From an uncultured Chloroflexia bacterium (GTDB lineage: Bacteria > Chloroflexota > Anaerolineae > DAOTYC01): 64,000 bases of DNA. Positions 767-42,279 of this stretch are shown here, one piece after another. Within the stretch, counting starts at the first letter, position 1; each line of letters begins with the position of its first letter. The stretch lies in NCBI GenBank assembly GCA_963843645.1, contig CAWJLE010000002.1, positions 189,909 through 253,908 on the forward strand, written 5' to 3'. The translations under genes and the position numbers were made by a program. The notes under the pieces were generated by a model. That model did not search any database. It was given only the letters and a program-made list of their open reading frames with translations, and was not told where the DNA came from.

Positions 767-2068
767 ATGGCGATGACATTGGCGGCACTGGAAGCGGCGG
801 TGGCGGCGGACCTGGACGACGTGGCGCAGGAGCTGTGGACGACCGGGCAGCTGGAGCGGGCGATCCGGAAAGCGTTGATGCGGTACAGCGAAGTGCGGCC
901 GCAAGTAGTGATGGGGACCGTTGCCTCCGCGGCGACCCGCGAGTACTCGCTGTCGTCGCTGACGGGGTTGGTGGACGTGCTGCGGGTGGAGTGGCCGTGG
1001 GTGCAGGGGGCGGGGATGACGTATCCGCCGCCGTACGTGGATTTCGACGTGCTGGACGACCGGATTTCGATTGCGCTGCGGACGGCGACGTGCCCGAAAG
1101 TGACGGACGCGCCGCTGCGGGTGACATACACGAAGACACACACGCTGTTGGGGTTGGACGGGGCGGCGGGGACGACCGTACCGGCCGAAGACGAAGAGAC
1201 CCTGATCGTGGGGGCGTGCGCCTACGCCGCGATCCAGCGGGCGCGGACCGTCGTCGAGGCCGTCAACCCCAGCGCCGACACCCCGGAGCTGTGGCAGAAG
1301 TGGGGGGAAGCCCGCCTGGCGGAGTTCGAAGCTGAGCTGGCCCGCCTGCAGGCCCGGAAGAGCGCCAAGGGACCCGGACGGACGACCGTCGTCGCGCCGG
1401 CCGGCGACCCGCGAACGCTGGGGTACCTGCGCGACCTGCTGGAGCTGGACCTCAGCGACGTCGAGAACGTGGTGTGGTCCAGCTGGGAGCTGGACCGCGC
1501 CCTGCGCAAAGCCCTGCAGGAGTACAGCGCCGTGCGGCCGCAGGAATACATCTCGACGCTGGCGGCAGCCGACAGCCGCGAGTACGCGCTGACCACGCTG
1601 AACGGGCCGCTGGTGGACGTGCAGCGGGTGTGGTGGCCGTACGACGCCGCGGCGCCCGAATATCCGCCGCAGTGGGTGGAGTTCGAGCTGTGGGACGACA
1701 AGACGATCCTGTTTGTGAAGAGCGATCCGGCGCCGCGGTTGGGGGACAAGCCCCTGCGCATCTTCTACACGAAGGTGCACACCATCGAGGACCTCGACGG
1801 GGCCACGGCGAGCACCTACGGCGCCGAGGACGAAGAAATTCTGCTGGCCGGCGCGGCCGGCTACGCGGCGGCGCAGCGAGCGCGGCAGGCCGGCGCCGAG
1901 TCCGCAGCCAAGTGGACCCGGTGGGGGGACGAGCGGCTGCGGGCCTTCAAAGCCGGCCTGGCGGCGATCGCGCGGCGGATCGAGCGGTACCACGACGCCC
2001 GCGTGGCCATCCAGTGGCCGGACCTGGAGGCCTTCGACGATAAGCACGAAGGCAGCAAGTGGGCGTGA
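767..2068 (+). CDS. hypothetical protein with internal tandem duplication (two homologous ~210-aa repeats)
   Basis: 433-aa ORF. Residues 1-~200 and ~225-430 align (…RALRKAL..YS.VRPQ…REY.L..L.G.LVDV.RV.WP…). Codon choice switches from G-ending to C-ending at ~nt 1260. Confidence 0.7.
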   Translation: MAMTLAALEAAVAADLDDVAQELWTTGQLERAIRKALMRYSEVRPQVVMGTVASAATREYSLSSLTGLVDVLRVEWPWVQGAGMTYPPPYVDFDVLDDRISIALRTATCPKVTDAPLRVTYTKTHTLLGLDGAAGTTVPAEDEETLIVGACAYAAIQRARTVVEAVNPSADTPELWQKWGEARLAEFEAELARLQARKSAKGPGRTTVVAPAGDPRTLGYLRDLLELDLSDVENVVWSSWELDRALRKALQEYSAVRPQEYISTLAAADSREYALTTLNGPLVDVQRVWWPYDAAAPEYPPQWVEFELWDDKTILFVKSDPAPRLGDKPLRIFYTKVHTIEDLDGATASTYGAEDEEILLAGAAGYAAAQRARQAGAESAAKWTRWGDERLRAFKAGLAAIARRIERYHDARVAIQWPDLEAFDDKHEGSKWA

Positions 2069-2195
2069 AGCGGTCAGCGATCAGCGATCAGCGGTCAGCG
2101 ATCAGCAACGACAACGACCCTCACGGCCGGTGAGGCTTCTGCTGACAGCTGAGAGCTGAATGCTGACCGCTGAGAGCTGATCGCTCCTCGGGAGG
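2068..2195. repeat. palindromic intercistronic element, copy B (inverted relative to copy A)
   Basis: Reverse complement matches 190-330 (…CAGCATTCAGCTCTCAGCTGTCAGCAGAAGCCTCACCGGCCGTGAGGGTCGTTGTC…). Followed by GGGAGG and ATG at 2202. Confidence 0.7.
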
Positions 2196-2201
2196 TGGGC
2201 G

Positions 2202-2903
2202 ATGGAGAGTGACGCGGCGGAGTACGGGGTGACCGTGGAGGTCGCGACGGCGGCGGCCGGCGCGAAGTGGCGGTGGGTGGCCACGCGGGTGCACCACCTG
2301 ACGGCGGGCGAGAACAACGGGAATCACAATCTGTACGTCACGCTGCTGGACGAGAACCTGGCGCGGGCGCGGACGCGCACGGCGTGGATCGCCTGGCCGA
2401 CGGAGACCACGTACGAGTACACGATCGAAACGATCCTGCAGGACAAGCCGGAGAATGAGGCGGGCGGCAACGCGCCGCTGTGGAAGCACCAGGTCGTGAG
2501 CTGCGGGGTGAACGTGAACTCGGACGAAGTGAGCGACGTCGTGCGTGGGATCCACACCGAGCATCCGGACGAGCCGCCGGCCACCCCTGGGGGGAACCTG
2601 GGCAACACGCTGTATCACCACTCGTTTCTGGTGGAGTTCACGCGGACGGCGGTAGGCGACCCTGAGCCCACGCCGGACCCGGGCCCGGGCGACGAGGACG
2701 ACGAGGCCTCGGGCGACGAGGACATGCCGGCGTTGGGGGACGTCCCGGAACGGTACTGGGGGTGGATCGAGACGGCGAGCCACGCGCTGAGTCTGGCCAT
2801 GTATCGGCTGAACGTGGTGGTGGCGGCCGGGCCGGCGGTCGGAGACCGGGCGGCGCGAGCGGCGGCCGGCGTCGACGAGGTGCGAAAGGCGTTGACAGGT
2901 TAG
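2202..2903 (+). CDS. hypothetical acidic protein (233 aa)
   Basis: RBS GGGAGG. Uniform G-ending codon usage. Asp/Glu-rich segment PDPGPGDEDDEASGDED. Confidence 0.65.
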   Translation: MESDAAEYGVTVEVATAAAGAKWRWVATRVHHLTAGENNGNHNLYVTLLDENLARARTRTAWIAWPTETTYEYTIETILQDKPENEAGGNAPLWKHQVVSCGVNVNSDEVSDVVRGIHTEHPDEPPATPGGNLGNTLYHHSFLVEFTRTAVGDPEPTPDPGPGDEDDEASGDEDMPALGDVPERYWGWIETASHALSLAMYRLNVVVAAGPAVGDRAARAAAGVDEVRKALTG

Positions 2904-2937
2904 AACGTTGGAACGTTGGAACGTGTGAACGAGGTAG
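2899..2937. repeat. tandem GAACGTTG octamer repeats (AACGTT palindrome cores) upstream of the 2940 gene
   Basis: ttagaacgttggaacgttggaacgtgtgaacgagg read directly. A matching array lies downstream of the gene. Confidence 0.55.
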
Positions 2938-2939
2938 TC

Positions 2940-3926
2940 ATGGGCATACACAAGGGGATCGTGCGGGGGTACGAGGCGGGGACGGGGCTGGTGAGCGTGG
3001 AGCTGGTGGGGAGCCATCCGAGCTTCGTGCAAGTGCCGGCCGGGGCGCACCTGGGGGCGGTGAATCTGGTCGACGGGCGGCGGTGCGCGGTGGTGTTCTT
3101 CGACGAGAGTAACGCGCGGGACGGGCTGGTGGTGGCCACGTACGACGTCGTGGCAGACGCGCACCACACCACGCACGAGAGCGGCGGGGCCGACGAAATC
3201 AGCGTGGCGGGGCTGGCCGGCCAGCTGGCCGAGGCGCAGACGCCCCAAGACTGGACCGCTGCCGGCGAGACCTGGACGTACGCCAGCGCCACGACGGTGA
3301 CCGTAGCCGGCGACGTCACGGGCAAGTACGCCGTGGGCGACAAAGTGCGGCTCAAGCAAGGCGGCGCGTACAAGTACTTCTACGTCGTGAGCGCCACGTA
3401 CAGCGCCCCCAACACCACCCTCACCCTGTACGCCGGCTCGGATTACACCGTGGCCAACGCGGCGATCACCGACCAGGCGTACTCGAAGCTGGCCACGCCC
3501 CAGGGCTTTCCGCACTGGTTCTACTACACGCCCACCTGGACCAGCGGGAGCAACCCGCAGCCGGCCAGTCCCGGCCTGCTGCGCGGCCGCTTCACCCTCA
3601 ACGGCCGACTGTTGTCGTTCGAGTTCGTACTCGTGTACGGACCGTCGACGACCGCGGGCACCGGGCAATGGATCTTTCAGCTGCCGTGGTCCATGGCCGC
3701 GTCGGCCTGGTCGTACGACTGGGCGTACAACTTCCGGGCGCAGATCATCGACGCCGGCACGGGCTACTACTCGCCCGGCCTGTGGGGCTATCCGGCCAGC
3801 GCGGCCACGATCTACGTCATGTTCAACAACTCATTCGGCGTGGGCGGCAACCTCCTGCAGGCCACAGTGCCAATGACCTGGGCCAACGGCGACGTGCTGC
3901 ACGTCAGCGGCGAGTACGAGGTGTGA
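2940..3926 (+). CDS. hypothetical protein (β-rich; possible structural/virion-like protein)
   Basis: ORF track 2916..3926. ATG at 2940 preceded by GAGGTAG. Ser/Thr/Tyr/Gly-rich composition. Codon usage shifts G3→C3 at ~nt 3170. Confidence 0.6.
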   Translation: MGIHKGIVRGYEAGTGLVSVELVGSHPSFVQVPAGAHLGAVNLVDGRRCAVVFFDESNARDGLVVATYDVVADAHHTTHESGGADEISVAGLAGQLAEAQTPQDWTAAGETWTYASATTVTVAGDVTGKYAVGDKVRLKQGGAYKYFYVVSATYSAPNTTLTLYAGSDYTVANAAITDQAYSKLATPQGFPHWFYYTPTWTSGSNPQPASPGLLRGRFTLNGRLLSFEFVLVYGPSTTAGTGQWIFQLPWSMAASAWSYDWAYNFRAQIIDAGTGYYSPGLWGYPASAATIYVMFNNSFGVGGNLLQATVPMTWANGDVLHVSGEYEV

Positions 3927-3927
3927 A

Positions 3928-3975
3928 ACGGGCATTGGAACGTTTGAACGTTTGAACGTTTGAACGTTGGACACC
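3928..3975. repeat. tandem GAACGTTT octamer repeats (4 copies) downstream of the 2940 gene and upstream of the 4024 gene
   Basis: ggaacgtttgaacgtttgaacgtttgaacgttgga read directly. Confidence 0.55.
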
Positions 3976-4023
3976 GCCTGTACGTCTGTCGGTGCAGGAC
4001 GTTGGACTGAGAGGAGCAATGAC

Positions 4024-5223
4024 ATGGGCGAGGCAGCCGAAGGGGCGCGACCGCGGACGGCGGGCGAAGTGTGGGCCGCGGCGAAGGCGGAGCTGGCCGG
4101 GCAAATGACGGGCGCCACGTACGAGCTGTACGTCAGCCGGACGACGGCGGCGGCGCCGGACGCGGACGTCCACGTGGGCGGCGAGCTGGCGGTGGTGGCC
4201 GGCAACGCCCAGGCCGTGGAGTGGCTGGACAAGCGCCTGGGGGCGGTCATCACCCGCACCCTGTGCGGCATCCTGGGCGGCACGGTCAACGTCAGCTACC
4301 AGGTAGCCGCGCCGACGCCGGCGCCGGCCCCCGCCGCGGAACTCGGGCAGCTGGAGCGCGAAGTTCGGGTCGTGGATCGGCGGCGGGGGTTCAGCATCCT
4401 GGAGAACGTCATCGTGGACGAGTACCTGCCGCTGATGGGCTCGACCGTGTTCGCCGTGTACGCCCTGTACAGCCGGCTGGTGAACTACGATCAGGGCTAC
4501 GCCTGGCCCTCGTATCGGACCATCTGCGCCCACCTGCACATCGGGCCGGCGACGCTGGCGGAAGCGAACCAGGTCCTGCAGGTCTTGGGGCTGATCGAAG
4601 TCCGCCCGGGCGACGTGCGGAGCCCCAACGCCTATTACCTGCTCGATGCCGGCGCGATCGACGACGCGCGCCAGGCGGCGATTCTGGCGGCCGCGGCGGC
4701 CTGGGTTCCACCCACGGCGGGGAGCCCGGCCCGCAAGCGCATCGAGGGCGGGCTGAATTCCACCCAGGGCCGGGTCGGCGCGCCGTGGAGCGGCGGCGGG
4801 CGCCCTCGAGGAGATCACAGCACGGCGGAGGGCGCTTCTGATCAGAAGCACCCTGTTACTGACGAGAAGCACCCTGCTTCTAATCAGAAGCACCCTGCTT
4901 CTGGCCCAGAAGCAGAACAAGACAAACAAACAGAACAAACACCAATTGTGGGTCCAGAAACTGTTGTTGTGGATGTGGTTGTGGCCCGCGCTGGCCGCAC
5001 GGACAGTGCGTCCAAAACCGTCGACGACGAAATTTCCGGACACACTCTCCTGGACGAGCTGGTGGCGCTGGGCGTGCAACGGCGGACGGCCCTGGACGCG
5101 GTGATGACGAACGACCGCCGGCGCGTGGCCGGCTGGCTGCGCTACACCCTGGAGCAGGACAACCTCCGCAACCCCGCCGGCTTCCTGCTGAGCATGCTGG
5201 GCACCGGCCGCCAGCCGCCGTAA
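4024..5223 (+). CDS. winged-helix replication-initiator-like protein with an in-frame low-GC 21-nt ×3 tandem-repeat linker
   Basis: ORF 3967..5223. ATG at 4024 after GAGGAG. The segment LPLMGSTVFAVYALYSRLVNYDQGYAWPSYRTICAHLHIGPATLAEANQVLQVLGLIEV resembles initiator/DnaD-type winged helices. Repeats encode (D/E/N)QKHPxx at 4840-4905. Confidence 0.5.
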   Translation: MGEAAEGARPRTAGEVWAAAKAELAGQMTGATYELYVSRTTAAAPDADVHVGGELAVVAGNAQAVEWLDKRLGAVITRTLCGILGGTVNVSYQVAAPTPAPAPAAELGQLEREVRVVDRRRGFSILENVIVDEYLPLMGSTVFAVYALYSRLVNYDQGYAWPSYRTICAHLHIGPATLAEANQVLQVLGLIEVRPGDVRSPNAYYLLDAGAIDDARQAAILAAAAAWVPPTAGSPARKRIEGGLNSTQGRVGAPWSGGGRPRGDHSTAEGASDQKHPVTDEKHPASNQKHPASGPEAEQDKQTEQTPIVGPETVVVDVVVARAGRTDSASKTVDDEISGHTLLDELVALGVQRRTALDAVMTNDRRRVAGWLRYTLEQDNLRNPAGFLLSMLGTGRQPP

Positions 5224-5232
5224 GGGAATCGA

Positions 5233-5339
5233 CCGCAGATGAACGCAGATAAAAGCAGATAAAGACAAGAAACAGAAACGACAAAAAAACAATTGCTTTT
5301 GATCTGTCGTTATCTGTGTTCATCTGCGTTCATCTGCGG
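5233..5339. repeat. AT-rich iteron-like palindromic element (GCAGAT[A/G]AA short repeats in inverted arms around an A-rich spacer)
   Basis: cgcagatgaacgcagataaaagcagataaagacaag … ctgtcgttatctgtgttcatctgcgttcatctgcgg. Related copies at 43555-43650 and 45558-45728. Confidence 0.6.
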
Positions 5340-5374
5340 TTAACTGTCTTTCAGAGACGATTGGGGGTGGGGCA

Positions 5375-7711
5375 TTGAAGGCGTGTTCGGACGAGCTGCT
5401 GGCGGCGATGGCGGGGAAGTCGCTGCAGGCGGAGCTGCAGGTGATCGTCGACGATCGGGCGGTGGGGACACCACGGGCGCGGTGGGAAGACTTCTACAGC
5501 GGGCCGCGGGGCTACGGGCACACCGCGTTTCAGCACATGACCGTGGTGGGCAGCACGCTGTTCGTGGTGGCCTTCGTGAACAGCGCGGGGCAGCTCCTGC
5601 GGCAGAAGCTGAGCGAGGGGACGGCGCCGAACGACGCCTGGTGGCGCACGGCCGGCTCGAACGTCAAGGCCGGCACGCCGATCGCCATGGCGGCGGGGCC
5701 GTACGTGCCGGATGCGTTGGTGTTCTGGGTGGACGCCGACGGGCGGAGTATCAAGTATGCCGACGCCTACACCGACGCCCCCAGCGGCGTCGGGACCACG
5801 GTCGACACCCTGGCGGCCGGGCACACCTGCCTCGGCCTGGCCGCGGTGCGGGTCGACTCCGCGGGGGGCTACGGCATCCGCCTGGCCCTGGTGTACGTCG
5901 ACGGCGCCACCGCCAACGGCAGCGGGGCCGACAAGACCGTCAAGGTCAAGCTGACCGCCGACGGCAGCACCTGGAGCGCCGCCATCGACACCGGCATCCC
6001 GGCCGGCCAAAGCTGCTACGGCGTGGCCGCCCTGAACTACGGCACCACGGCCACCCACGCCGGCCTGCACCTGGTGGTGGCCGGCAAGTACCACGACCTG
6101 GCCCAGGGCGACAACGTCAACGTCTACGCCGTGTCGATCGACGTCGCCGCCAACACCGCCGGCGCGACCTGGCTCGGCTGTCCCCTGCAGGCCAGCAAAG
6201 GGGCCACGGTGAACTGGCGGTACCCGAGCCTCATGCCCGAAACCAGCCTGGACCGCTGCCGCTGCTTTCTGCAGCGCTACGACGGCAGCCTGGCGAGCGA
6301 CAAACGCTGGCGGACCGGCAGCGTCGCCGTGCAGACCCTGGCCGATGGGGCCGTCCTCTTCGGCGACTGGATGCCGTTCGACGCGCGCTGCGCCGTGACC
6401 GTCGGCGTGGGCCGCGTGTGGAACTACCTGTGGTGCCTGTGCGGCGACCACATGTGGCGGGCGCCGTTGTACGACGGCGGCGCCACGTACCGCGTCGACC
6501 TCACCGCCGACGTCGTCGGCCTGCAGCACGCCTACTACGACAACACCCTGTTCCTCGAGGACGTCACCAAAGCCGGCTGGGGTTACCTCATCCTCGACAA
6601 CCATGACAACCGCTATCAGAACCTCGGCCAGAGCGGCAAGTACCAGGCCGTCAAACGCGGCGCCCAGGTCGTCATGAAGGTCGGCTACCGCTGGCGTGAC
6701 CCCGCCACCAGCCAGTGGGTCAGCGAAACCAAGATCCTGCCGCCCATGTGGATCTCGCGGATCATTCAGGTCAACAACCCCGCCGTCAGCACGGCCGGCG
6801 GATTACCGCGGCTGAGCGTGCAGGGCGCGCCCAGCCTGGGCGGCTCGTTCATCGTCCTCAGCCTGTACGACGGGTGGGCCATCACCACCCACCGCCTGGC
6901 CAAGTACTACTTCGGGTGGGACAGTGCCCGGCCGCGCAGCGTCCTGCAGGACGCCTTCCTGACCGGCATGGGGTTCACCTACAGCGACGACGGCACGGCG
7001 GCCCTCGGCGTGGCCGAGACCGGCGTCGTGCGGCAGACCCTGCAGGGCAAGCCCTACTGGGCCATGATCAAAGACATCCTCAACACCGTCGGCTGCCGCA
7101 TGAAGTTCTACACCGAAGACGACGAAGAGGCCACCAGCCCCACCGTGCGGGTCCACGTCTTCACCACCACAGCCGCGGACCAGGCCGACGCCGCGTATGG
7201 CGACACCGGCGAGCCCCGCCTGTACGCCAGTATCTACTGGGAGCAAGACCGGGCCAGCTGGCTGCGGTGGATGTGGTGGTACCAGGTCGTCGAGGACGCC
7301 GCGGCCGCGATCGCGTCGGCCGGCTCGCCCCTGGTGGGCGCCCCGATCACCGGCGCGCGGGTCGAGGGCAAAGACGTCGCGGCGGAGTACATCGCCTTCG
7401 ACGAAGTCGAGCGCCTCGGGCTCTACCAGCCGATGACCATCCTCGACGACAACATCACCACGGCCGAGGCCGCCGAAGCGCGGGCCGCGTTCGCGGCCTC
7501 GCAGGCGGTGCAAGGCATGCAGAGCGGCTGCATCCTCGTGCCCGTGCATCCGGGCTTGGAGCTGTGGGACCGCATCGAGATCACCGACGCGAAGGCCTGC
7601 TTCAACCCGATGAGCCGGCGGGTCGCCGGCGTCGAAACGTTTTATGACAAGCGGGGTAAGCGCTGCCAGTACGAGCAGGTGGTGTATCTGTGGGGACTGG
7701 AGCCGTGGTGA
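5375..7711 (+). CDS. large hypothetical protein (778 aa)
   Basis: Long ORF with consistent GC3. TTG/alternative start per ORF track. No recognisable catalytic motif. G3-type codons in the first ~100 codons, C3-type thereafter. Confidence 0.7.
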   Translation: MKACSDELLAAMAGKSLQAELQVIVDDRAVGTPRARWEDFYSGPRGYGHTAFQHMTVVGSTLFVVAFVNSAGQLLRQKLSEGTAPNDAWWRTAGSNVKAGTPIAMAAGPYVPDALVFWVDADGRSIKYADAYTDAPSGVGTTVDTLAAGHTCLGLAAVRVDSAGGYGIRLALVYVDGATANGSGADKTVKVKLTADGSTWSAAIDTGIPAGQSCYGVAALNYGTTATHAGLHLVVAGKYHDLAQGDNVNVYAVSIDVAANTAGATWLGCPLQASKGATVNWRYPSLMPETSLDRCRCFLQRYDGSLASDKRWRTGSVAVQTLADGAVLFGDWMPFDARCAVTVGVGRVWNYLWCLCGDHMWRAPLYDGGATYRVDLTADVVGLQHAYYDNTLFLEDVTKAGWGYLILDNHDNRYQNLGQSGKYQAVKRGAQVVMKVGYRWRDPATSQWVSETKILPPMWISRIIQVNNPAVSTAGGLPRLSVQGAPSLGGSFIVLSLYDGWAITTHRLAKYYFGWDSARPRSVLQDAFLTGMGFTYSDDGTAALGVAETGVVRQTLQGKPYWAMIKDILNTVGCRMKFYTEDDEEATSPTVRVHVFTTTAADQADAAYGDTGEPRLYASIYWEQDRASWLRWMWWYQVVEDAAAAIASAGSPLVGAPITGARVEGKDVAAEYIAFDEVERLGLYQPMTILDDNITTAEAAEARAAFAASQAVQGMQSGCILVPVHPGLELWDRIEITDAKACFNPMSRRVAGVETFYDKRGKRCQYEQVVYLWGLEPW

Positions 7712-7721
7712 GGGGGGGGAA

Positions 7722-7800
7722 TTCTCTCTTGGAGGCGCAACGATTTCGGAGTATACTAACTGGATTCATAAGCCAACGGTTGAATGCGAAATCCGGAATC
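7722..7800 (+). promoter_or_regulatory. conserved promoter plus structured leader, copy 1 (TTGGAG-17-TATACT, then GATTTCGGAGTATACT…AAGCCAACGGTTG…GCGAAATC)
   Basis: About 80 nt nearly identical to 29996-30076. Contains a σ70-like -35/-10 with 17-nt spacer and a GATTTCG/CGAAATC inverted repeat. Confidence 0.45.
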
Positions 7801-8030
7801 GACGTGTTCGGCAAAGAGGGACGAGGTACTACCACTTCTGGAGACTGGCGGCGTCTCCGGGAACGAGCACTGTGTGGTCACGATCGTGTCTCCAGAAGCC
7901 CCGCGCATGGGGATAAAGCTTCATCGAATACCAACAGAAGTCGGTGAAGCAAAGAAGGTCCGACGAATTGGCCCGGGAATCGCCATCGTGCAAACAACAT
8001 GCCGAGTCTGACTTTCTCTACGGGAGGGGG

Positions 8031-8723
8031 ATGCAAGCCAGAATGGACAACGAACGCCTGACACAGAAGAAACAGCAGCGCTATGATTTCCTCAAGAAGC
8101 TCTACGATAAGACGGACGGAAAAGATCTTGTTCCCGTAAACTTCGACGGGTTCGCGGAAGAACTGGGTTTGAACAAAGAAGCCACACGTGACGTCATCCA
8201 GTACCTAAAGGGTGAAGGCTTAGTGAGGCAGCACACCCAAGAACTGGTGAGCATTACGCACGCGGGAGTTCTCGAGGTCGAGGAGACGATGGAGCATCCA
8301 GATAGGCCGACGTCCCATTTTCCGCCCGGTGTCAACATCCTGCATATCGAGACCGTGAAAGACTCGCAAATACAACAGGGGACCTTCGCCTCGTCGCCCC
8401 AAATCCAATTCCGTGATGACGAGATATCAAGAGCCTTTGCCAGCCTATTACAACAGGTTGAGTCGTTGGCAGAAGGACCAGACAAGCGTGACGCCAAACA
8501 TGCGGTGGAGATGCTTGAAGAAGAGGCACGCAAAGGCACACACGCTCATGAAGGAACCGTGCGGAGGTGGCTCAATTTCCTTCTCGAAACTGCCCCAGCC
8601 GCCGGGGAAGTCGCGGTGACCACCTTCATCAATCCAATTGCCGGAGTGGCTAAAGTATTCCAGAAGGTAGCAGAGAAGGCGAAACAGGAAAGAGAACAAG
8701 GCGCCCATCATGGCCCGAACTGA
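8031..8723 (+). CDS. winged-helix (wHTH) DNA-binding protein with uncharacterised C-terminal domain; first gene of the low-GC island
   Basis: ATG after GGGAGGGGG RBS. N-terminus (KKLYDKTDGKDLVPVNFDGFAEELGLNKEATRDVIQYLKGEGLV) is a typical wHTH. GC ~50% vs ~68% in flanks. Confidence 0.65.
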   Translation: MQARMDNERLTQKKQQRYDFLKKLYDKTDGKDLVPVNFDGFAEELGLNKEATRDVIQYLKGEGLVRQHTQELVSITHAGVLEVEETMEHPDRPTSHFPPGVNILHIETVKDSQIQQGTFASSPQIQFRDDEISRAFASLLQQVESLAEGPDKRDAKHAVEMLEEEARKGTHAHEGTVRRWLNFLLETAPAAGEVAVTTFINPIAGVAKVFQKVAEKAKQEREQGAHHGPN

Positions 8724-8771
8724 GCATCCTGCGAAGAACCTCGCCACTGGAAACCTCAGCGGAGGCGACAG

Positions 8772-9719
8772 ATGAGCGACAAGCAGAACGATGATATCCT
8801 GCAGTCCACGACGCCCAAACCTTTTGTGTTCGTCTTGATGCCCTTTGATCGGTCATTTGACGACATTTACAAGTTCGGAATTAAGGGCGCAGCGGAGCAA
8901 GTTGGAGCCTATGCAGAGCGGGTAGACGAGCAGATCTTCACTGAAGGTATTCTCGACAGGATCTTCAGCGAGATCAACAAGGCTGATGTAGTGGTTGCAG
9001 ATATGACAGGGCGAAATCCCAACGTGTTCTACGAGGTCGGCTATGCCCACGCTCTGGGCAAGATCGTGCTGCTGGTGACAAGAGACGCCAACGACATTCC
9101 CTTTGATCTTCAGCACCAACAGCACACGGTCTATGGCGGGAGCATCGACACATTGAAGAGCGAGCTGGCTAGAAAGCTGCGCTGGGCAATTACCAATCCG
9201 AAGGCAAGATCAGCCGACGTCGTCGTCACTCTGCAGTTCTCGCGACTCGATTCACGCCCGCCCAAAGCGTATATACTTGAGGTGCATATAGCGAATGATG
9301 GGCTTGAGACCATAGAACGCTTCAGTCTGCAGATTGAAGCCCCGCACTATCAACCCAGTAGGGAACCAAAGAATGTCCGTACAGCCGATCTGAGTCTTAG
9401 AGACCATGCTCTTGACCGCTGTGAGACTGAGTTTCTCTCGTTCCCAGACTCGACAAGGACGTCTTTGAAAATGACTTATTGGTCTCCGCATCCTCTCCTG
9501 CCTGGGCAGCGGATCTCGTTAACCAGCAAATTCCGCTACGGACTCGAGTTCCGTGGATTCGACAAGGCCCAGGTCCTCGAGTGGTTCAGAGTCACGTCAA
9601 GCCTAGACAACTCCAAGTTGTCTTGGTCTCTCTATTGTGATCGCCGACCTTCCACAAACGGGCAGCTTTCACTTTCCGAACTATTCGAGGCCGAGCCGTC
9701 GACCTCGGTGTGGCTCTAG
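8772..9719 (+). CDS. nucleoside 2-deoxyribosyltransferase-like / TIR-like (SLOG-superfamily) N-glycosidase-motif protein with unknown ~170-aa C-terminal domain
   Basis: FVFVLMPFD…ADVVVADMTGRNPNVFYEVGYAHALGKIVLLV matches the NDT/DNPH1-type motif (β1-Asp; catalytic Glu in the E-x-G-Y-A motif). GGAGG RBS. Low GC. Confidence 0.65.
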   Translation: MSDKQNDDILQSTTPKPFVFVLMPFDRSFDDIYKFGIKGAAEQVGAYAERVDEQIFTEGILDRIFSEINKADVVVADMTGRNPNVFYEVGYAHALGKIVLLVTRDANDIPFDLQHQQHTVYGGSIDTLKSELARKLRWAITNPKARSADVVVTLQFSRLDSRPPKAYILEVHIANDGLETIERFSLQIEAPHYQPSREPKNVRTADLSLRDHALDRCETEFLSFPDSTRTSLKMTYWSPHPLLPGQRISLTSKFRYGLEFRGFDKAQVLEWFRVTSSLDNSKLSWSLYCDRRPSTNGQLSLSELFEAEPSTSVWL

Positions 9720-10037
9720 TGCGCCCTCATGGGTTCTCGGATCCCGCCTTCGCCATGGCTGTTTCGACGACGTGATCACATTAACCTGATGTGGCCGACT
9801 CATGACATGGGCTCGACTTGTGGATCGCTCAGATGTCGCAGATGTGTGTGAATCCGTGGTGCCGCAACTGGGGCGAAGCAAGCAGAAAAGACGTGTCCTC
9901 GCGGTGCAGCGCAGCCGCGCCTAGAGCTGAGGCCGGGGCAATTGTTGCCGTTTCGAGCGGACAGTGTTCCTGAACGAGGGCCAGTCTCAGTGTCGCCGGA
10001 CGATGCCCGCCACGCCAGCCCGAAAGGGAGATAAGCC

Positions 10038-10988
10038 ATGACAGACTGCGATGCCCCGCCCAACTCGTATGATCGATTTTATGAGCACAATCGCGACACC
10101 TTTGGAGAGTACATGCCAAAGGAAAAGCTGATGGATGCTCTCTACTATCATTTTCTTCCATCTCAATTCGCGATAGATGATCTTGCAAAGCAGAGGATCA
10201 AGGTTAGTACAATAGACACTCTTAATGACCCGTTTGAAATGAACCCCTATATGCGATGCGATGACGACATAAGGCCGGAGTATCGCGAGGAGCGCAGCAG
10301 AATTTGTGACAATTACGGTCTCTTGTGTTTTTGCCATGACTGGCGCGAAACGCTTCTGTGGTCGTACTATGCCGACAAGCACAGAGGCATTGCAATAGGC
10401 TTTGATATTCCATCGGATGACGTGATAGAAGTTTGCTACACCCTCAACCCGACAAGGCAACGAGTTGAGCTGACGGATAACCCAAGAGAGGTCGAGAAGC
10501 AATTCCTAGATTTGGCCAAGGTCAAGTACGGAGAGTGGATGCACGAGAGAGAAGCCAGAGTACTAGTCGAACGGAAAGACTGGAAGGATGAACCAGTTGA
10601 CAAGTGTGGGAAGCAGGCCCTTTACCGCTTCCGCCATTTTGACAATAGGCTACAAGTGAAGGCTATAGTGTTGGGCTGTAGGTTTCCCTATTCGAAAGCA
10701 TGGGAGGACATACTGCGAGAAGCCAAGAAGCTGGAGGCTTGGATTGTTCCTACACGAGAGGCCTGGGAAGGCTACAAGATACGTCTACGCAACCGCAAGG
10801 CCAAACCCGGCACATCAGAGTGTCCGTCCGGCAGTCCATCGGCGTCTGGATCCCCCAGTTCTAGCGCCTCCCCGTCGGAGTGTACGTTTCTCAGTCCGTC
10901 GGCCTCTCCATCTGCCGGTCCCAGCGCCTCCCCGTCTGCGTCCGCATCTCCCAGTCTCAGTGCGGATGAAGATATGCCAAACGATTGA
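10038..10988 (+). CDS. DUF2971-family protein with C-terminal Ser/Pro-rich low-complexity tail
   Basis: Signature motifs LNDPFE and LLCFCHDWRETLLWSYYADKHRGIAIGF match the DUF2971 hallmarks (NDPxE; MWshYAd.hkG). Tail PSGSPSASGSPSSSASPS… is encoded by imperfect ~60-nt repeats. Confidence 0.75.
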   Translation: MTDCDAPPNSYDRFYEHNRDTFGEYMPKEKLMDALYYHFLPSQFAIDDLAKQRIKVSTIDTLNDPFEMNPYMRCDDDIRPEYREERSRICDNYGLLCFCHDWRETLLWSYYADKHRGIAIGFDIPSDDVIEVCYTLNPTRQRVELTDNPREVEKQFLDLAKVKYGEWMHEREARVLVERKDWKDEPVDKCGKQALYRFRHFDNRLQVKAIVLGCRFPYSKAWEDILREAKKLEAWIVPTREAWEGYKIRLRNRKAKPGTSECPSGSPSASGSPSSSASPSECTFLSPSASPSAGPSASPSASASPSLSADEDMPND

Positions 10989-11175
10989 TGTCCTGACAAA
11001 GAAATCATTACGGCAGCGGCGCAGCTTCCCGCTTGTTGCCTGCGACCGGCCATTGGCCAACAGAACGACAAGTTGCTGACCCCCAAACTGCAGGGTGAGC
11101 AGCCGAAGTATCCGTACGGCACGGAGATGACGTTCAAGCAGGCGCAGCGTTGCTATTCTGGAAGTGTGGAGAGCG

Positions 11176-12012
11176 ATGACTGTGCGTGCGCTCGTGGAGG
11201 AGAACAGTGCCATGACCAGAAGGGAGCAAAAGGAAGAGGAGTTGGTTGTCTTCAATGAACTGAAGGCCATCGTTCCGCACTTCCCCACTGCAGAGCAGAG
11301 TGAGTGTCCTGATTTCTTGGCGGAGACTAGCGCTGGGACTCTTGGCATCGAACTCGAGTGCTACATACGAAAACAAAACCCGGGCGCATCTGACGACGAT
11401 AATCCACGTCAGTACGATCAGTTTCGAAAACAGGTTCAAGCCGAGACTCAAGCCAAGTTTGAACGAATGTGCCACCCTCCCGTTTTGGCCACCTTCTTTT
11501 GGTTCTCGTATGACCTGATTCAGAGTAGGAAAAAAACCAACCCGACATGGTATCGAACAAGACCCGCGGAGTTGGCGTCCCAAGCCGCCGATCTGATGTG
11601 TCGCTCTTTGTCCGGGCTTGGCCCGGAAGTAAACCGGATAAGGATCCCACACGTCGAAATGCCGCAATCTCTTCGAGGTTATCTTCACTGCATTGATATG
11701 TGGATCTGGCCGGGTTTGGAACGCACTGAGTGGTCCGCGGTCGATTCTGGTCGGGTGACCGTGGCACCTCAGGAACTGGAGAGACTTATTGCATATAAAG
11801 ACCAAGCGAAGCTCAATGAGTATCTGAAACACTGCCAGTCGTGCTGGTTGGTGATCTACGCAGACGGCAAGCACATCTCCTCCACTGCCTTAATCAGCCC
11901 CGAACTTCCGGCTTACAGATTCAACACGCGTTTCTCGAGGGTATTGTTCTACTATGATCGTTATGAGCACCGTTACCTCGACCTTCTCATAGGGAATCGC
12001 GGTAGTTCCTGA
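11176..12012 (+). CDS. hypothetical protein (last gene of the low-GC island; weak PD-x(n)-ExE nuclease-like motif)
   Basis: ORF 11164..12012. ATG at 11176 after GGAGAG. Low-GC codon usage. PDFLAETSAGTLGIELECYIRK is only weakly nuclease-like. Confidence 0.55.
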   Translation: MTVRALVEENSAMTRREQKEEELVVFNELKAIVPHFPTAEQSECPDFLAETSAGTLGIELECYIRKQNPGASDDDNPRQYDQFRKQVQAETQAKFERMCHPPVLATFFWFSYDLIQSRKKTNPTWYRTRPAELASQAADLMCRSLSGLGPEVNRIRIPHVEMPQSLRGYLHCIDMWIWPGLERTEWSAVDSGRVTVAPQELERLIAYKDQAKLNEYLKHCQSCWLVIYADGKHISSTALISPELPAYRFNTRFSRVLFYYDRYEHRYLDLLIGNRGSS

Positions 12013-12205
12013 ACCCTTCGATCCGGTGAGCAATTCCAAGCTCGGCAAAGACCTGCGGGCCTCCTGCCCGAGTGCCTTCGTTTCTGCTCTAATCCTCGTC
12101 CGGCAACATGATCGTGATCACCGGCTCGCCGGCGTCTCCAGGGCCGCACACGGCCTTAAGGGTGATGAGCTGAGTGCGGTTCCCGACGCGCGGGTGGGTC
12201 GTCCA

Positions 12206-12283
12206 CGAATAATGGCCGCGAATACACGAATAGCGCTCACTGGAGAGGTCGTTATTCGTGTATTCGTGGCCGTTATTCGCGGA
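12206..12283. promoter_or_regulatory. 27-bp inverted repeat (CGAATAATGGCCGCGAATACACGAATA … TATTCGTGTATTCGTGGCCGTTATTCG) upstream of phzF
   Basis: Near-perfect inverted repeat separated by ~22 nt, ~75 nt upstream of the PhzF start. Confidence 0.4.
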
Positions 12284-12358
12284 TGGCCCCCCGCGGGCTT
12301 GCCTTCGCGCCGCAGATATGCTAGAGTCCCGACATCCTGGCGAATAGCGGAGGCGAAT

Positions 12359-13237
12359 ATGCTGGCACGCCGATTCAAGCAAGTCGATGTCTTCACGACG
12401 CAGCCGTATCGCGGCAATCCGGTGGCCGTCATCCTCGATGCAGACGGACTCAGCACGGAGGATATGCAGCAGATCGCGGCCTGGACGAACCTCTCGGAGA
12501 CGACCTTCGTGCTCCCGCCGACACAGCCGGGCGCGGATTTCCGACTGCGGATATTCGGGCGGGTGAACGAGTTGCCCTTCGCCGGCCACCCGACGATCGG
12601 CAGCGCCCACGCGGTGCTGGAGAGCGGGTGGGTCACGCCGACCGCGGGGCGCATGGTGCAGGAGTGCGGCGCGGGCCTCCTCCCGCTCCGGATCGAGACC
12701 GGCGGCCCGGCGCGCCGCATTTTCGTGCGCGCGCCTGAGCCGCGCATTGCCCCGCTTCCGGCCGCGGCCGTCGAGCAGCTCAGCGCGGCGATCGGCTCGA
12801 CGGTTGCGGGGGCGCCGCTGGCGATCGACGTCGGCCCGGTGTGGCTGGTGGCCCGGCTGCCGGACGAGGATGCCGTCCACGCGCTGCGGCCGGACATGGC
12901 GGCCGTCACCCGCCTGAGCCGCGACCTCCACGCCGAAGGCGTCATCGCCTTCGGGCTCACCGGCCGGGCGACCTACCAGGTCTACACGCGCGCTTTTGCC
13001 CCCGTGGTCAACGTGCCCGAGGACCCGGTCTGCGGCTCCGGCAACGCGGGTGTGGCCGCGTTCCTGAACCACTTCGATCTGCTGGCGGCGACGGGGCTCA
13101 CCTATACCGCGCAGCAAGGCTACGAGGTCGGTCGCTGCGGGGTGCTGTCGGTCTGCGTGGACCCGGCCGACCGTTCGATCGAGGTCGGCGGGTCGTCCGT
13201 CACGTGCGTAGACGGCCTGCTGCGCGATCCCGCGTAG
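12359..13237 (+). CDS. PhzF-family phenazine-biosynthesis-like isomerase
   Basis: MLARRFKQVDVFTTQPYRGNPVAVILDADGLSTEDMQQIAAWTNLSETTFV… is the classic PhzF/YddE N-terminus. In frame with ORF 12026..13237. Confidence 0.9.
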   Translation: MLARRFKQVDVFTTQPYRGNPVAVILDADGLSTEDMQQIAAWTNLSETTFVLPPTQPGADFRLRIFGRVNELPFAGHPTIGSAHAVLESGWVTPTAGRMVQECGAGLLPLRIETGGPARRIFVRAPEPRIAPLPAAAVEQLSAAIGSTVAGAPLAIDVGPVWLVARLPDEDAVHALRPDMAAVTRLSRDLHAEGVIAFGLTGRATYQVYTRAFAPVVNVPEDPVCGSGNAGVAAFLNHFDLLAATGLTYTAQQGYEVGRCGVLSVCVDPADRSIEVGGSSVTCVDGLLRDPA

Positions 13238-14641: not shown

Positions 14642-14785
14642 GGTACTGGGGCGACCAAGGTCGCGTCTGGATTACGAAGCCCGCCTCCGCGGGCTACGGC
14701 AACAGGAAGAACGGTCCTTCTGTCGCCGCAGCCCGCGGAGGCGGGCTTCGTAGTCCAGACGCGACCTTGGTCGCCCCGTACCGCC
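14642..14785. repeat. MITE-like palindromic repeat, family P1 (…GGTCGCGTCTGGATTACGAAGCCCGCCTCCGCGGGCTA… hairpin)
   Basis: ~145-bp near-perfect palindrome. Other copies at 55170-55325 and 63621-63775. Spurious ORFs translate it as …RSRLDYEARLRGL…. Confidence 0.75.
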
Positions 14786-15769: not shown

Positions 15770-16030
15770 GCCCTTCGCCGTCGCGCCGCCGCCCCTCGCC
15801 GTCGCACCGCCGCCCCTCGCTGTCGCGCCGCCGCCCCCGAATACTGTCACCCTGAGGAAGCGCCGTATGCGACCGAAGGGTCTCGCGCGCGAAAGACGAG
15901 CCCGTCTAGGTCGACCAAAAGGGCTCGTCTCTCGCGCGCGAGACCCTTCGGTCGCATACGACGCTCCCTCAGGGTGACAGTAATCGAGGGCGGCGGTGCG
16001 CGACGAGGGGCGGCGGTGCGACGGCGCGAC
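15770..16030. repeat. composite palindromic repeat, family P2 core (GTCACCCTGAGGAAGCGCCGTATGCGACCGAAGGGTCTCGCGCGCGA…) flanked by inverted 21-bp tandem repeats
   Basis: Core hairpin 15846-15981. Left arm has 3× CGCCGCCCCTCGCCGTCGCGC; right arm has their reverse complements. Related copies at 27228-27410 and 63361-63520. Confidence 0.7.
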
Positions 16031-16963: not shown

Positions 16964-19111
16964 ATGAAGTCACAGAGAGCGGTTTCGATCAAGTCGGAGA
17001 GTGGTCAGTCCATTATCATCGTCAGCATGATCCTGGTGGTGCTGATCGCCCTGATGGCCCTGGTGGTGGATGTCGGCAACGCCTACGCCCAGCGGCGCGT
17101 GGCCCAGAACGCGGCCGATTCGGCCGCCCTCGCGGCGACCGGCGAGCTGGCGCGGGGCAGCGCAACGACCAACGCCAAAGTGCTGGCCGCGGCGAAATCG
17201 TACGCGCAGCAGAACGGGATCGACCCGAACGTGGTCGAGGTCCATTACTTCAGCTACAACCCCACTAACCAGCGGCAATCCGATCTCGGTGCGGTGCCGA
17301 ACAACAACAGCGTGCCGCGCTCGGATGCTGACGGGGTCATGGCGACCGTCAGCCGCACCTTCCCCACGTACCTGGCCGGAGTGATCGGGCGCCGCAGCAT
17401 GGCGGCGAGCGCCAGTTCGAGCGGGTACGTGGGTGAGGGCGCGTGCAGTGCCGGCGGCCCCGAGGACCCGCTGTTCCCCATCGCGGTCAGCAGAGACACG
17501 TTCACGCCCCTCGCCGATCAGTGGGTCCCCAAGTTTGGGCGGGACAACATCTACGTGATATGGGGCGAGAAAACGTCGCCCGGAAACTTCCAGTGGCTGT
17601 CCTGGAACCAGGACTCCGGCCACACCAGCGAGCAAACGCTGCTGTACAACCTGGATGGATCGGCGCAGAGCGGCGTTTGGAACGTCGGCGACTCCATTCC
17701 GGCCGGACCGGGCAAGATGACCAGCAGCAACACGGCGAATCTGCTGCAGCAGCGCATCAACGGTCAGCTGCCGAACCCGGTGTCGGTGGCCGTGTACGAT
17801 TACGTTTCCGGAACCGGGGCTAACGCCACCTATCACGTGGCCGGTTTCGCGAAATTCTACATCACCGGCTACAAATTCAAGAGCTCGAGCAAGTATGTGA
17901 AAGGCTACTTCGTGGAAACCGACCCGTCCATTTCGGAGGGTGGCTGCGGCTTCTACGGCACCCGGACCGTCAAACTGCGTCCCCCGATGAAAATCACCCG
18001 AAACATCGAAGGCCGGCTCGCCTACCAGTGGTTGAAGACCGAAGGCGGTGACGCCGCACAGACCGTGAATCCGGCGGACGTGGTGCTGGTCATGGACACG
18101 TCCGGCAGCATGAACCAGACCTGGGGCTCGAACCAGACGAAGATCGCCACGGCGCGCCGCGTGCTCAAGGATTTCGCCGGGCGGCTGCGCTCAGAACTCG
18201 GCGACCAGGTCGCCCTGGTCCACTTCCCCAAGGTGAACAATCTGAACGATGCGGCCGGCTACGAAACCTTCAGCAGCAGCTACAAGCTGAGCTGCAGCAA
18301 TGACCGCAGCAATTACCGCTTCCGAGCGGAAACCCTGGTCGACCTCACGTCGCGCATGCAGAGTATCACAGACACGGTGACGTCGTTGGGCGCCAACGGC
18401 GGCACCCCGATTGCGGATGCGATGGACGCGGCCTTCGAGATCCTGAACGGGCCCGGCCACGTGGACGGGCACGCGAAGGTGGTGATCCTGGCCTCGGATG
18501 GTATGACGAACGTCACCCAGGACGGCCGTTGGACCGGATACAGCGGCAACACGACGTCCGGGATGGGCGGCTGCAACGGCACGGCTGAAGCGCAGGCCAT
18601 GGACGTCGCACAGGCGGCCAAGACGGCCGGCGTCACGGTCTTCACCGTGGCCATCGGCAACGACTTCAGCGACACCATCCTGCAGAGCATGGCGTCGCCC
18701 AGCAGCGATCCGTCCAAGCCCCACTTCTTCGTCGCCTCGGATCCCACGGCGATGGAGCAGATCTACCAGTCGCTGGGCACTCGCGTGACCCACCTGTCCG
18801 GAGAGTGCAAGGTGACCCCCGTCGAACAAGGTGCGGCGAGCGCCTACGTCGCCATTTGGAAGAATGGGGTCAAGGTCGCGGAAACGACTGCCGACTCCGG
18901 TGGGAACTTCGTATTCAGCAACGTGGCGCCAGGCACCTACACGATCGTCGCTTCGACGAGCCGCGATGGATTGACCTACAACGTGTTCATCAATCGTATC
19001 GGCGGGATGGAGATCGATCCGCCCACAGTCGTCGTCGGTGAGCAAGCAGGCGTATACTCCGTCGACGTGTTCCTCAAGTCGTCGACACTGCCGGAATGCG
19101 CCGGAGGGTAA
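16964..19111 (+). CDS. TadG-like Flp-pilus-associated protein with von Willebrand factor A domain and C-terminal Ig/CarboxypepD_reg-like domain
   Basis: N-terminus SGQSIIIVSMILVVLIALMALVVDVGNAYAQRRVAQNAADSAALAA is a TadE/G-like (PF13400-type) motif. vWA MIDAS: VVLVMDTSGSMN…ILASDGMTN. Confidence 0.85.
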   Translation: MKSQRAVSIKSESGQSIIIVSMILVVLIALMALVVDVGNAYAQRRVAQNAADSAALAATGELARGSATTNAKVLAAAKSYAQQNGIDPNVVEVHYFSYNPTNQRQSDLGAVPNNNSVPRSDADGVMATVSRTFPTYLAGVIGRRSMAASASSSGYVGEGACSAGGPEDPLFPIAVSRDTFTPLADQWVPKFGRDNIYVIWGEKTSPGNFQWLSWNQDSGHTSEQTLLYNLDGSAQSGVWNVGDSIPAGPGKMTSSNTANLLQQRINGQLPNPVSVAVYDYVSGTGANATYHVAGFAKFYITGYKFKSSSKYVKGYFVETDPSISEGGCGFYGTRTVKLRPPMKITRNIEGRLAYQWLKTEGGDAAQTVNPADVVLVMDTSGSMNQTWGSNQTKIATARRVLKDFAGRLRSELGDQVALVHFPKVNNLNDAAGYETFSSSYKLSCSNDRSNYRFRAETLVDLTSRMQSITDTVTSLGANGGTPIADAMDAAFEILNGPGHVDGHAKVVILASDGMTNVTQDGRWTGYSGNTTSGMGGCNGTAEAQAMDVAQAAKTAGVTVFTVAIGNDFSDTILQSMASPSSDPSKPHFFVASDPTAMEQIYQSLGTRVTHLSGECKVTPVEQGAASAYVAIWKNGVKVAETTADSGGNFVFSNVAPGTYTIVASTSRDGLTYNVFINRIGGMEIDPPTVVVGEQAGVYSVDVFLKSSTLPECAGG

Positions 19112-41671: not shown

Positions 41672-41688
41672 GGCGTACCCTCCTGTGT

Positions 41689-42279
41689 CTAGCGGAAGAA
41701 TAGAACCGCATTCACTGCTACGTCCAGGGTCGGTGCCAGTTCGTTCAGACTCAATCGAGCCTCTTCACAAGACACGTAGGCGCCCAGGATGTGATGGGGC
41801 GGTACCCGATTAGGGACCAACACCTCAGCACATTTAATCCGCTTCTTCCGCCACTGCTCAATCTGATTGGCGTCCGTCCAGTATGTGGCGAAAACCAGTG
41901 TCTCGTCAACTTCGCTGAGTCCGTAAGGAGATGGGAGGAAGCGCGTATAATTGCTGGCAGCGTTCCCATCTGTGATCACTACCCCAGACAAATCGAGGAT
42001 CGCCTGGCTGACCCGCAACACGCACAATTCCATATGAGAATCCCTGCGTTTGTAAATCATCGGGTTCCTGGCGCAGAGGTACAGATTCACGTATGTGTGG
42101 AGAGGTCGGCCACCAGGTACTGTTTTTCTCGTTCGTATTTCCTGAACCTCAGGCATTGCAACTGAAATTGGTCCCATCGGCTTAGCTCTCTGGTATGAAA
42201 GGATGCCGTGGATCAGGATCGAAGGGACGTTAGCGATGTTGGTTATGTAGTGCAATTCAGGGAGATCTGACCTATTCAT
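41689..42279 (-). CDS. darT: DarT-like toxin (DUF4433 ssDNA ADP-ribosyltransferase)
   Basis: LHYITNIANVPSILIHGILSY… matches the DarT N-terminal hallmark (YHxTHxxNLxSIL). 196 aa. GC ~52-55%. Confidence 0.75.
   Translation of the reverse strand: MNRSDLPELHYITNIANVPSILIHGILSYQRAKPMGPISVAMPEVQEIRTRKTVPGGRPLHTYVNLYLCARNPMIYKRRDSHMELCVLRVSQAILDLSGVVITDGNAASNYTRFLPSPYGLSEVDETLVFATYWTDANQIEQWRKKRIKCAEVLVPNRVPPHHILGAYVSCEEARLSLNELAPTLDVAVNAVLFFR

Follow-up and report, generated by a model that had tools for sequence, protein, structure and literature searches.

A block of low guanine-plus-cytosine (GC) content holding four genes interrupts a 64,000-nt stretch of DNA, here called the window, from an uncultured Chloroflexia bacterium (assembly GCA_963843645.1, contig CAWJLE010000002.1, positions 189,909 to 253,908 of the forward strand). 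The genes, referred to as P1 to P4, are open reading frames (ORFs) on the plus strand at 8031-8723, 8772-9719, 10038-10988 and 11212-12012. P1 encodes a protein with a winged helix-turn-helix (wHTH) domain, P2 a protein with a domain like that of the N-glycosidase DNPH1 and the deoxyribosyltransferase NDT, P3 a DUF2971-type protein and P4 an orphan product. An earlier reading of the nucleotide sequence (the original prediction) had taken the four for an operon encoding a candidate undescribed defence system. The composition of the block, the domains and families of the four proteins, and the genes found beside their relatives elsewhere are described here, and together they bear on whether the four belong to one system.

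The block at 7712-12012, to which no strand is assigned, is compositionally foreign, because its GC content and its GC content at third codon positions (GC3) are low and the intergenic palindromic repeats typical of the host are missing from it. In 400-nt windows, GC falls from 0.69-0.73 (5400-7600) to 0.49-0.57 (7600-12000) and recovers to 0.72-0.76 by 12400-13000. The stretch 7712-12340 has a GC of 0.541, versus 0.646 in the remainder of the window; it is the 4.6-kb stretch of lowest GC in the 64 kb, about 3.5 standard deviations under the mean. GC3 ranges from 0.56 to 0.63 in P1 to P4, versus 0.82-0.94 in the flanking genes used for comparison, namely a replication-initiator-like gene, a gene for a 778-aa protein, phzF, a response regulator gene and a vWA gene. 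The abrupt drop in GC reported in the original prediction is thus borne out by both measures, with a GC of about 0.54 in the block as a whole. The block contains none of the conspicuous palindromic arrays of 7-8-nt units seen in host-GC intergenic regions; to its right, the first such array occupies 12193-12292. The right edge accordingly falls between 12013 and ~12190, where these host-type repeats restart.

Other marks of integration are scarce. No tRNA gene was found in the whole window, no integrase domain among the flanking ORFs scanned, and no convincing pair of repeats around the block. The sole candidate is an 11-mer, TCGCCGGCGTC, present at 7623-7633, near the 3' terminus of the gene for the 778-aa protein, and at 12126-12136, in the spacer upstream of phzF; chance alone would give 0.07 such matches. 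A 10-mer that overlaps it, CGGCGTCTCC, is common to 7849-7858 and 12130-12139. These short matches could be the trace of an insertion-site duplication, or chance.

All four co-directional ORFs described in the original prediction were recovered. Its claim of short gaps holds for P1 and P2, which are separated by 48 bp, and fails for the remaining pairs, with 318 bp between P2 and P3 and 187-223 bp between P3 and P4, depending on the start chosen for P4. For that last gene the ORF stands, with a start probably other than the proposed 11176; 11212 is the likeliest, as GGAGGAG lies 9 nt upstream of it and the public gene call likewise gives 266 aa, and 11176 and 11164 are alternatives. A good ribosome-binding site had been claimed for each gene. 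P2 does have a good one, GGAGG, 7 nt 5' of its ATG. The Shine-Dalgarno-like GGGAGGGGG of P1 directly abuts the ATG at 8031, and hence 8043 is an alternative start for the 230-aa protein. Promoter- and terminator-like sites occur in the block at or under the counts expected by chance, no significant terminator was found between the four genes, and operator-like palindromes upstream of P1, P3 and P4 are unremarkable.

P2 (315 aa) is composed of an N-terminal DNPH1/NDT-like domain of the DrHyd superfamily (residues 14-141; 8811-9194) and a C-terminal, mostly beta domain resembling a beta-sandwich (9213-9719). The NDT-like motif noticed in the original prediction is supported by Pfam, in which P2 scores 30.1 bits against PF05014 (Nuc_deoxyrib_tr; cut-off 28.8, E 5.9e-7). 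This match is partial and covers residues 60-109 of P2 and positions 52-103 of the 117 in the profile. In PADLOC, the only model matched at E <= 0.1 is the CBASS 'Effector TIR' model, again in part (1.9e-11), and in PHROGs P2 matches phrog_3634. Residues 61-105 align with DNPH1/Rcl among the PDB sequences, which places Glu88 of FYEVGYAHALGK (codon 9033-9035) on the Glu of GYELGRAVALGK at a DNPH1-like spacing. Glu88, which lies in a (Y/F)E(L/I/V)G motif, does not vary among 34 homologues of P2. Its counterpart in the GYELG motif of DNPH1/Rcl is the catalytic nucleophile of that enzyme, as is the corresponding Glu of NDT.

The AlphaFold (AF2) model of P2 agrees with this domain structure. Its N-terminal domain is predicted with a predicted local distance difference test score (pLDDT) of 86-95, and its C-terminal domain, mostly beta, with one of 30-75. 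By Foldseek, the N-terminal domain resembles human DNPH1 in its Rossmann-like three-layer alpha/beta fold, with a template modelling score (normalized to the target) of 0.70-0.75 and a root-mean-square deviation of ~3.2 Å; further matches are Leishmania NDT and, from SPARTA TIR-APAZ, the TIR domain. Matches to GH3 enzymes reflect the succession of an alpha/beta domain and a beta-sandwich. No Pfam match to TIR (PF01582), TIR_2 (PF13676) or DUF4062 was obtained for P2 at E <= 0.1, and P2 is TIR-related at the level of the clade only. The superfamily was named DrHyd by the Aravind laboratory, in whose account the DrHyd and TIR versions found in conflict systems are NADase effectors (PMC9503650). 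As a member of the NDT/DNPH1 family, P2 would act on nucleotides, nucleosides or NAD+ as an N-glycosidase or a transferase.

The family of P2 is very large. A search of protein clusters returned 3875 matches, and the N-terminal domain is 60-82% identical across Chloroflexota, Acidobacteriota, Planctomycetota, Proteobacteria, Bacteroidota and the archaeal genus Methanosarcina. The C-terminal domain is barely alignable across the family, with weak motifs common to most members, and the version present in the window was found in one homologue only (P0002, 64% identity). A pattern scan of 185,579 species genomes gave 352 matching stretches in many phyla and in archaea, at 60-80% identity, and further relatives were located on 118 plasmids as well as in 12 contigs of viral or prophage type. 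In two more distant relatives the catalytic domain is found instead at the C-terminus of 279-aa proteins, on a Sphingorhabdus plasmid (L164; NZ_CP022549.1) and a Paraburkholderia plasmid (L165; NZ_CP125297.1); one of this pair immediately follows a type II restriction-modification operon (dcm-vsr-restriction endonuclease), and the other is located near an AbiEi/AbiEii pair and insertion sequence elements.

The genomic surroundings of P2 homologues were surveyed at 80 loci, each with 8 kb of flank on either side. Comparison of P1, P3 and P4 with the six-frame ORFs of these loci by phmmer detected no relative of any of the three, and all-against-all clustering revealed no conserved neighbour, only antisense shadows. 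Among the 150 nearest neighbours, a Pfam scan identified mainly housekeeping families; three neighbours are integrases, two are PIN proteins and two are HerA proteins. Beside P0002, the closest homologue, lie trypsin and PDZ genes, and its contig is without relatives of P1, P3 or P4. The original prediction had proposed asking whether homologues of the four genes co-occur in other genomes; they were not found together elsewhere, and its single four-gene operon or system is consequently unsupported.

P1 is a two-module protein in which a winged helix (residues 1-88) is joined by a linker to a helical domain. Its AlphaFold model (overall pLDDT 85) bears out the DNA-binding wHTH of the original prediction, which had missed a second, TCAD2 domain (PF19971) at residues 134-220 (8430-8690). 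TCAD2 is matched at 35.9 bits versus a cut-off of 27, over profile positions 2-90 of 90, and is spanned in the model by a helical bundle at residues 129-226 with a pLDDT of ~90. The linker motif, P..PT.HFPP.VNI.HI....DSQIQQGT..S, occupies residues 90-121 (8298-8393). Residues 104-124 have a pLDDT below 50 and are predicted to be disordered, yet they hold the most conserved motif of the P1 family, HFPP.NI..I..M.NSQIQQGT, in which S112-T118 are invariant in the family alignment (A3). Foldseek gave merely weak matches of the model to GntR/FadR-, MarR- and ArsR-type regulators, and neither a WYL nor an AbiEi domain was detected in P1.

A word-indexed search for P1 homologues returned P1 itself only. 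An exhaustive HMMER search yielded 1661 relatives, which split into two independent modules. The N-terminal module (residues ~8-125) is typical of proteins of ~207 aa. TCAD2, on the other hand, lies elsewhere at the C-terminus of proteins with TIR_2, Roc-COR, STAND-like AAA (AAA_35), kinase-like TCAD9 or transglutaminase domains, and some TCAD2 genes adjoin PIN/PhdYeFM and VapB genes. The fusion of the wHTH-linker module to TCAD2 is rare, with one other case (P0123) among the best 150 hits of the 1661; the P0123 gene is followed 27 bp later by the start of a gene for a 627-aa pentapeptide-repeat protein. Homology of TCAD2 with the helical module that ends the ~207-aa proteins was considered and rejected (hhalign probability 0.3%). 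By these profile comparisons P1 is a module-swapped member of its family, because the helical module of the ~207-aa proteins is not detectably related to TCAD2. Neither TCAD2 nor PDC-S31, the PADLOC candidate class matched by P3, is mentioned in the searchable literature, and 'TCAD' is absent from the main text of the two Aravind-laboratory papers checked.

The genes beside members of the P1 N-terminal module family were collected from 80 metagenomic loci, fetched with a narrow alignment of the family. Of these loci, 47 extend far enough downstream, and in 37 of them the P1-family gene is followed, within 400 bp, by the start of a co-directional ORF of 100 aa or more. These downstream ORFs are extremely diverse, 46 of them falling into 39 clusters. 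Many are of defence or toxin type, with TIR_2 (L090), a CAP12/Pycsar TIR (L121), an NDT-like domain with a LuxR HTH (L106), DUF2971 (L094), AbiTii, Tlde1 (L096), DUF5677 (L124), a type I methyltransferase and, in L150, a trypsin-like protease; PADLOC adds matches to its candidates PDC-S35 and PDC-S05. TIR or NDT-like domains were found in three of the 34 downstream genes scanned and DUF2971 in one; an NDT-like partner occurs at one of the 80 loci, and no locus has both an NDT-like and a DUF2971 gene. The recurrent unit is thus a P1-family gene followed by one variable partner, and in the window that partner is P2.

The linker of the P1 family also occurs outside it. In one pair of loci (L107/L108), the downstream AbiTii-type protein repeats the linker and helical module of its upstream neighbour (E 1.3e-34), an arrangement that recalls the paired 'effector-associated domains' of conflict systems (PMC7159879). 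The linker motif, with or without the helical module that follows it, is present in AbiTii-type and other downstream proteins at 6718-7626 of L107, 6600-7280 of L138 and 6636-7898 of L120. The conserved linker could be a shared interaction or processing element. Separately, the downstream gene in L091 and L160 is an unannotated ORF with an RNFLIHE stretch that is HEPN-like by eye only.

P3 (316 aa) is a DUF2971-type protein, much as originally predicted, of the type designated PDC-S31 by PADLOC. It matches four PDC-S31 models, with 1.8e-22, 1.2e-20 and 3.6e-14 among the scores, and phrog_1762 at 6e-25; its Pfam score is marginally under the cut-off (21.3 versus 22 bits). By tblastn its relatives are located on 72 plasmids, with values down to 2e-17, those listed being mostly annotated DUF2971, and one plasmid relative adjoins a Shedu nuclease gene. 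From ~10809 onwards P3 encodes a Ser/Pro-rich low-complexity tail, part of which is specified by a 60-nt tandem duplication at 10815-10934 (75% identity).

P4 (266 aa) is an orphan. Only P4 itself was found in 5.8 billion protein clusters, no domain was detected in Pfam, PADLOC or NCBIfam (E <= 0.1) or in PHROGs (E <= 0.01), and no match was returned from the PDB sequences (E <= 10) or, by tblastn, from plasmids. The original prediction had called this product weakly nuclease-like, for which no search made gave any match; assignment to the PD-(D/E)xK or another nuclease class is therefore unsupported by profiles and PDB sequences. The reading of P4 as a gene is favoured by codon usage and amino-acid composition. 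An antisense ORF of 246 aa (11134-11874, minus strand), rich in Leu and Arg and poor in acidic residues, overlaps it. With codon usage trained on P1 to P3, the frame of P4 scores 0.113 versus 0.064 bits per codon for the antisense ORF, which is probably a shadow ORF; the coding strand of P4 is favoured, if unproven.

Comparison with known systems helps to place these proteins. Residues 14-141 of P2 share the fold and Glu motif of DNPH1/Rcl and NDT (PF05014; the DrHyd branch of the TIR-DrHyd-SLOG clade). P2 differs from these enzymes in its additional C-terminal beta-sandwich of ~170 aa, in the distribution of its family, which is like that of a mobile accessory gene, and in its partial Pfam match. 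A parallel in architecture is Swarozyc, a single-gene defence with an N-terminal TIR-like NADase (DUF4062) and an auxiliary domain (bioRxiv 10.64898/2026.05.01.722283). P2 too has an N-terminal domain of the TIR/NDT class with a catalytic-type Glu followed by a C-terminal auxiliary domain, and both are stand-alone genes of patchy distribution. Unlike Swarozyc, P2 has no Pfam match to DUF4062, and the auxiliary domains are unrelated as far as can be tested. The NDT effectors of type II retrons (Retron-Eco1/Ec86, Sen2) are likewise ~310 aa long, with an N-terminal NDT-like N-glycosidase and a C-terminal domain. However, no ORF resembling a reverse transcriptase is present in 7700-12400, no Rfam match was obtained in the block at E <= 1, and the 318-nt spacer at 9720-10037 is unstructured, folding less stably than shuffled versions of itself (z +2.4). 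A retron or noncoding RNA reading of P2 was therefore rejected.

For P3, the reference is Aristaios, a validated single-gene anti-phage protein of lactococci, which has 316 aa and DUF2971 as its sole Pfam domain, and for which the authors reported a predicted fold like that of ADP-ribosyltransferases (PMC11381338). P3 belongs to the same Pfam family, if at a borderline score, and has the same length, but differs in its Ser/Pro-rich tail and sub-threshold match. P1, in turn, has a bona fide TCAD2 domain of the kind present in the vWA-MoxR or GTPase-centric 'ternary' conflict systems, which are NTP-dependent (Kaur et al. 2020, PMC7159879). No MoxR AAA+, vWA, VMAP/iSTAND, STAND or GTPase core partner was found within the block or beside it. 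The only vWA protein is encoded at 16964-19111 by a TadG-like pilus gene (Tad/TadE/Tad_C domains) of host GC. P1 is also similar to the AbiEi and BrxR/CapW wHTH regulators or antitoxins in its wHTH domain and upstream position.

Together, these observations make it reasonably probable, with somewhat better than even confidence, that the block is a mosaic islet of conflict-type accessory genes, of phage-defence or toxin kind, gained by horizontal transfer, with a possible P1 and P2 pair, and not one four-component machine. Its genes look like candidate anti-phage modules that are independently mobile and were gained separately. P1 and P2 appear to be the best-supported functional unit within it, a pairing suggested by the 48 bp between them, by their common composition and by how the P1 family behaves. 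P1 would most likely serve as a DNA-binding regulator, antitoxin or adaptor of the downstream gene, in the manner of AbiEi or BrxR/CapW-type wHTH proteins, with the TCAD2 helical bundle offering a protein-protein interface. P2 would be the effector; once activated, it would break NAD+ or a (deoxy)nucleotide at the N-glycosidic bond, leading to arrest of the infected cell. By analogy with the auxiliary domain of Swarozyc, its fast-diverging beta-sandwich may be a recognition or regulatory domain. P3 would then be an independent single-gene candidate of the DUF2971/PDC-S31 type, and P4 an orphan passenger gene.

Several points weigh against this interpretation. P2-family genes are normally solitary, since no neighbour is shared at the 80 loci and the closest homologue is without the other three genes, and the association of P2 itself with defence islands is weak, since the neighbours in those 80 genomes are largely housekeeping genes (gyrA, RNR, EPSP synthase, tRNA synthetase and others). 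Family hidden Markov models found no P1-like or TCAD2 gene at any of these loci, and P2 contains neither a TCAD2 domain nor the P1-type linker motif that might explain a physical link to P1; the pairing in the window may be a chance juxtaposition. Such high conservation as that of the P2 N-terminal domain is unusual for a defence effector. The genes downstream of the P1 family include SRPBCC, GNAT and beta-helix proteins of non-defence type, and the enrichment in defence genes there was judged by eye against the P2-neighbour set, with no formal background. As for P3, besides falling under the DUF2971 gathering score, it is not close to Aristaios, and Lactococcus does not figure among the listed organisms of its plasmid matches. 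Finally, the biochemical activities, the coupling of P1 to P2 and any anti-phage effect are inferred.

The idea of a single novel four-component defence system, in which P1 would act as sensor or regulator, P2 and P3 as effectors and P4 as a nuclease, draws on the common strand, common foreign composition and contiguity of the genes, on the lack of a significant terminator between them, and on those P1-family genes that elsewhere precede an NDT/TIR-like or a DUF2971 gene. It is nonetheless very improbable. The combination was found nowhere else, whether at the 80 P2 loci or beside the 64%-identical P2 homologue, and the P1-family loci, with one NDT-like partner in 80 and one DUF2971 gene among 34, never join the two. 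P4 is an orphan, the gaps of 318 and ~200 bp leave space for independent promoters, and both the DUF2971/PDC-S31 and P2 families behave as single-gene units. What survives of the original prediction, besides the deviant composition, is that three of the four genes belong to families tied to biological-conflict or defence contexts. Alternatively, the block could be horizontally acquired cargo that takes no part in phage defence. P2 would then be an N-glycosidase like DNPH1, serving nucleotide salvage or detoxification, P1 would be a transcription factor of the ordinary kind, and P3 and P4 would be carried along as selfish or neutral genes. The closest solved structures to P2 are the metabolic enzymes DNPH1 and NDT, in most of the 80 genomes its homologues are surrounded by housekeeping genes and lack neighbours of defence type, the catalytic domain of its family is under strong purifying selection, and the architecture of P1, a wHTH with a helical domain as in GntR/FadR-type regulators, is generic. 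Yet the P2 family is rare, patchy and carried on plasmids and prophages, which fits a mobile accessory gene and not core metabolism, and a hypervariable C-terminal domain is unexpected for a salvage enzyme. With the partners of TCAD2 and of the N-terminal module family overwhelmingly of conflict-system type, and a validated anti-phage gene within the family of P3, cargo of this kind is unlikely.

The last alternative is a toxin-antitoxin explanation. Here, P1 and P2 would form an addiction module in which a wHTH antitoxin or autorepressor and an N-glycosidase toxin stabilize the mobile DNA that brought them, with any anti-phage effect secondary. The order of wHTH gene, 48-bp gap and enzyme resembles that of AbiEi/AbiEii-type pairs, and the presence of one wHTH family upstream of many toxin-like genes (TIR, Tlde1, trypsin, AbiTii and the ORF of L091/L160) is typical of modular toxin-antitoxin systems; some TCAD2 genes are, moreover, close to PIN/PhdYeFM and VapB genes. 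P2 homologues, however, normally occur without such a partner and, for that reason, P2 is presumably not constitutively toxic; nor is a neutralizing interface evident in the pair. An addiction module is thus rated as distinctly unlikely, with the qualification that toxin-antitoxin and abortive-infection functions overlap in practice and that this explanation is not cleanly separable from the islet with a P1 and P2 pair.

Within the mosaic-islet interpretation, a bolder extension can be entertained, which is possible if doubtful. The wHTH-linker module of P1 might mark a widespread, undescribed family of partners (regulators, antitoxins or adaptors) for TIR, DrHyd/NDT, DUF2971, AbiTii, Tlde1 and protease effectors, with the linker as their common interaction or processing element. 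P1 and P2 might then constitute a new two-gene anti-phage system, and the solitary proteins combining DrHyd with a variable beta-sandwich (at least 3875 clusters) a new single-gene class of sensor-effectors like Swarozyc. At present, the locus is an ordinary small islet of foreign accessory genes and defines no new multi-gene system. It does provide two leads, should the assignments above hold. One is the family of solitary N-glycosidase proteins, which is very large, spans bacteria and archaea, and combines a near-invariant catalytic domain with a hypervariable C-terminal domain. The other is a wHTH family with a conserved disordered linker, situated immediately upstream of many unrelated effector genes and possibly acting as a general control or adaptor element. 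Both the solitary DrHyd-beta-sandwich family and the wHTH-linker family merit systematic survey.

The remainder of the window has features of its own. To the left of the block, 767-7711 is a run of plus-strand ORFs of host-like GC and nearly without database matches. Within this run, 3967-5223 resembles phage O-like/DnaD-like replication initiators (phrog_391, 8e-6; HTH_36) and 2916-3926 matches phrog_13144, while the 778-aa protein encoded at 5375-7711 has no match in Pfam, PHROGs or phage genomes. This run may represent an element that integrated long ago, with the islet lying at its border, although this is unproven. The host-type palindromic arrays are located at 197-347, 2069-2204, 2900-2931, 3935-3966, 5231-5340, 12193-12292, 14648-14777 and 15824-16000. 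They consist of tandem 7-8-nt units that form long imperfect palindromes, with arms of up to 111 nt and 91% complementarity, and the unit varies by place (GCTGAnC, TTGGAACG, GCAGATn and CGAATAn). These arrays may be a repeat family, regulatory sites or terminators. Lastly, a second low-GC stretch at 40750-42000, with 1-kb windows of 0.53-0.58 versus a window mean of 0.64, overlaps a minus-strand ORF at 40544-41671 and may be another foreign insertion.

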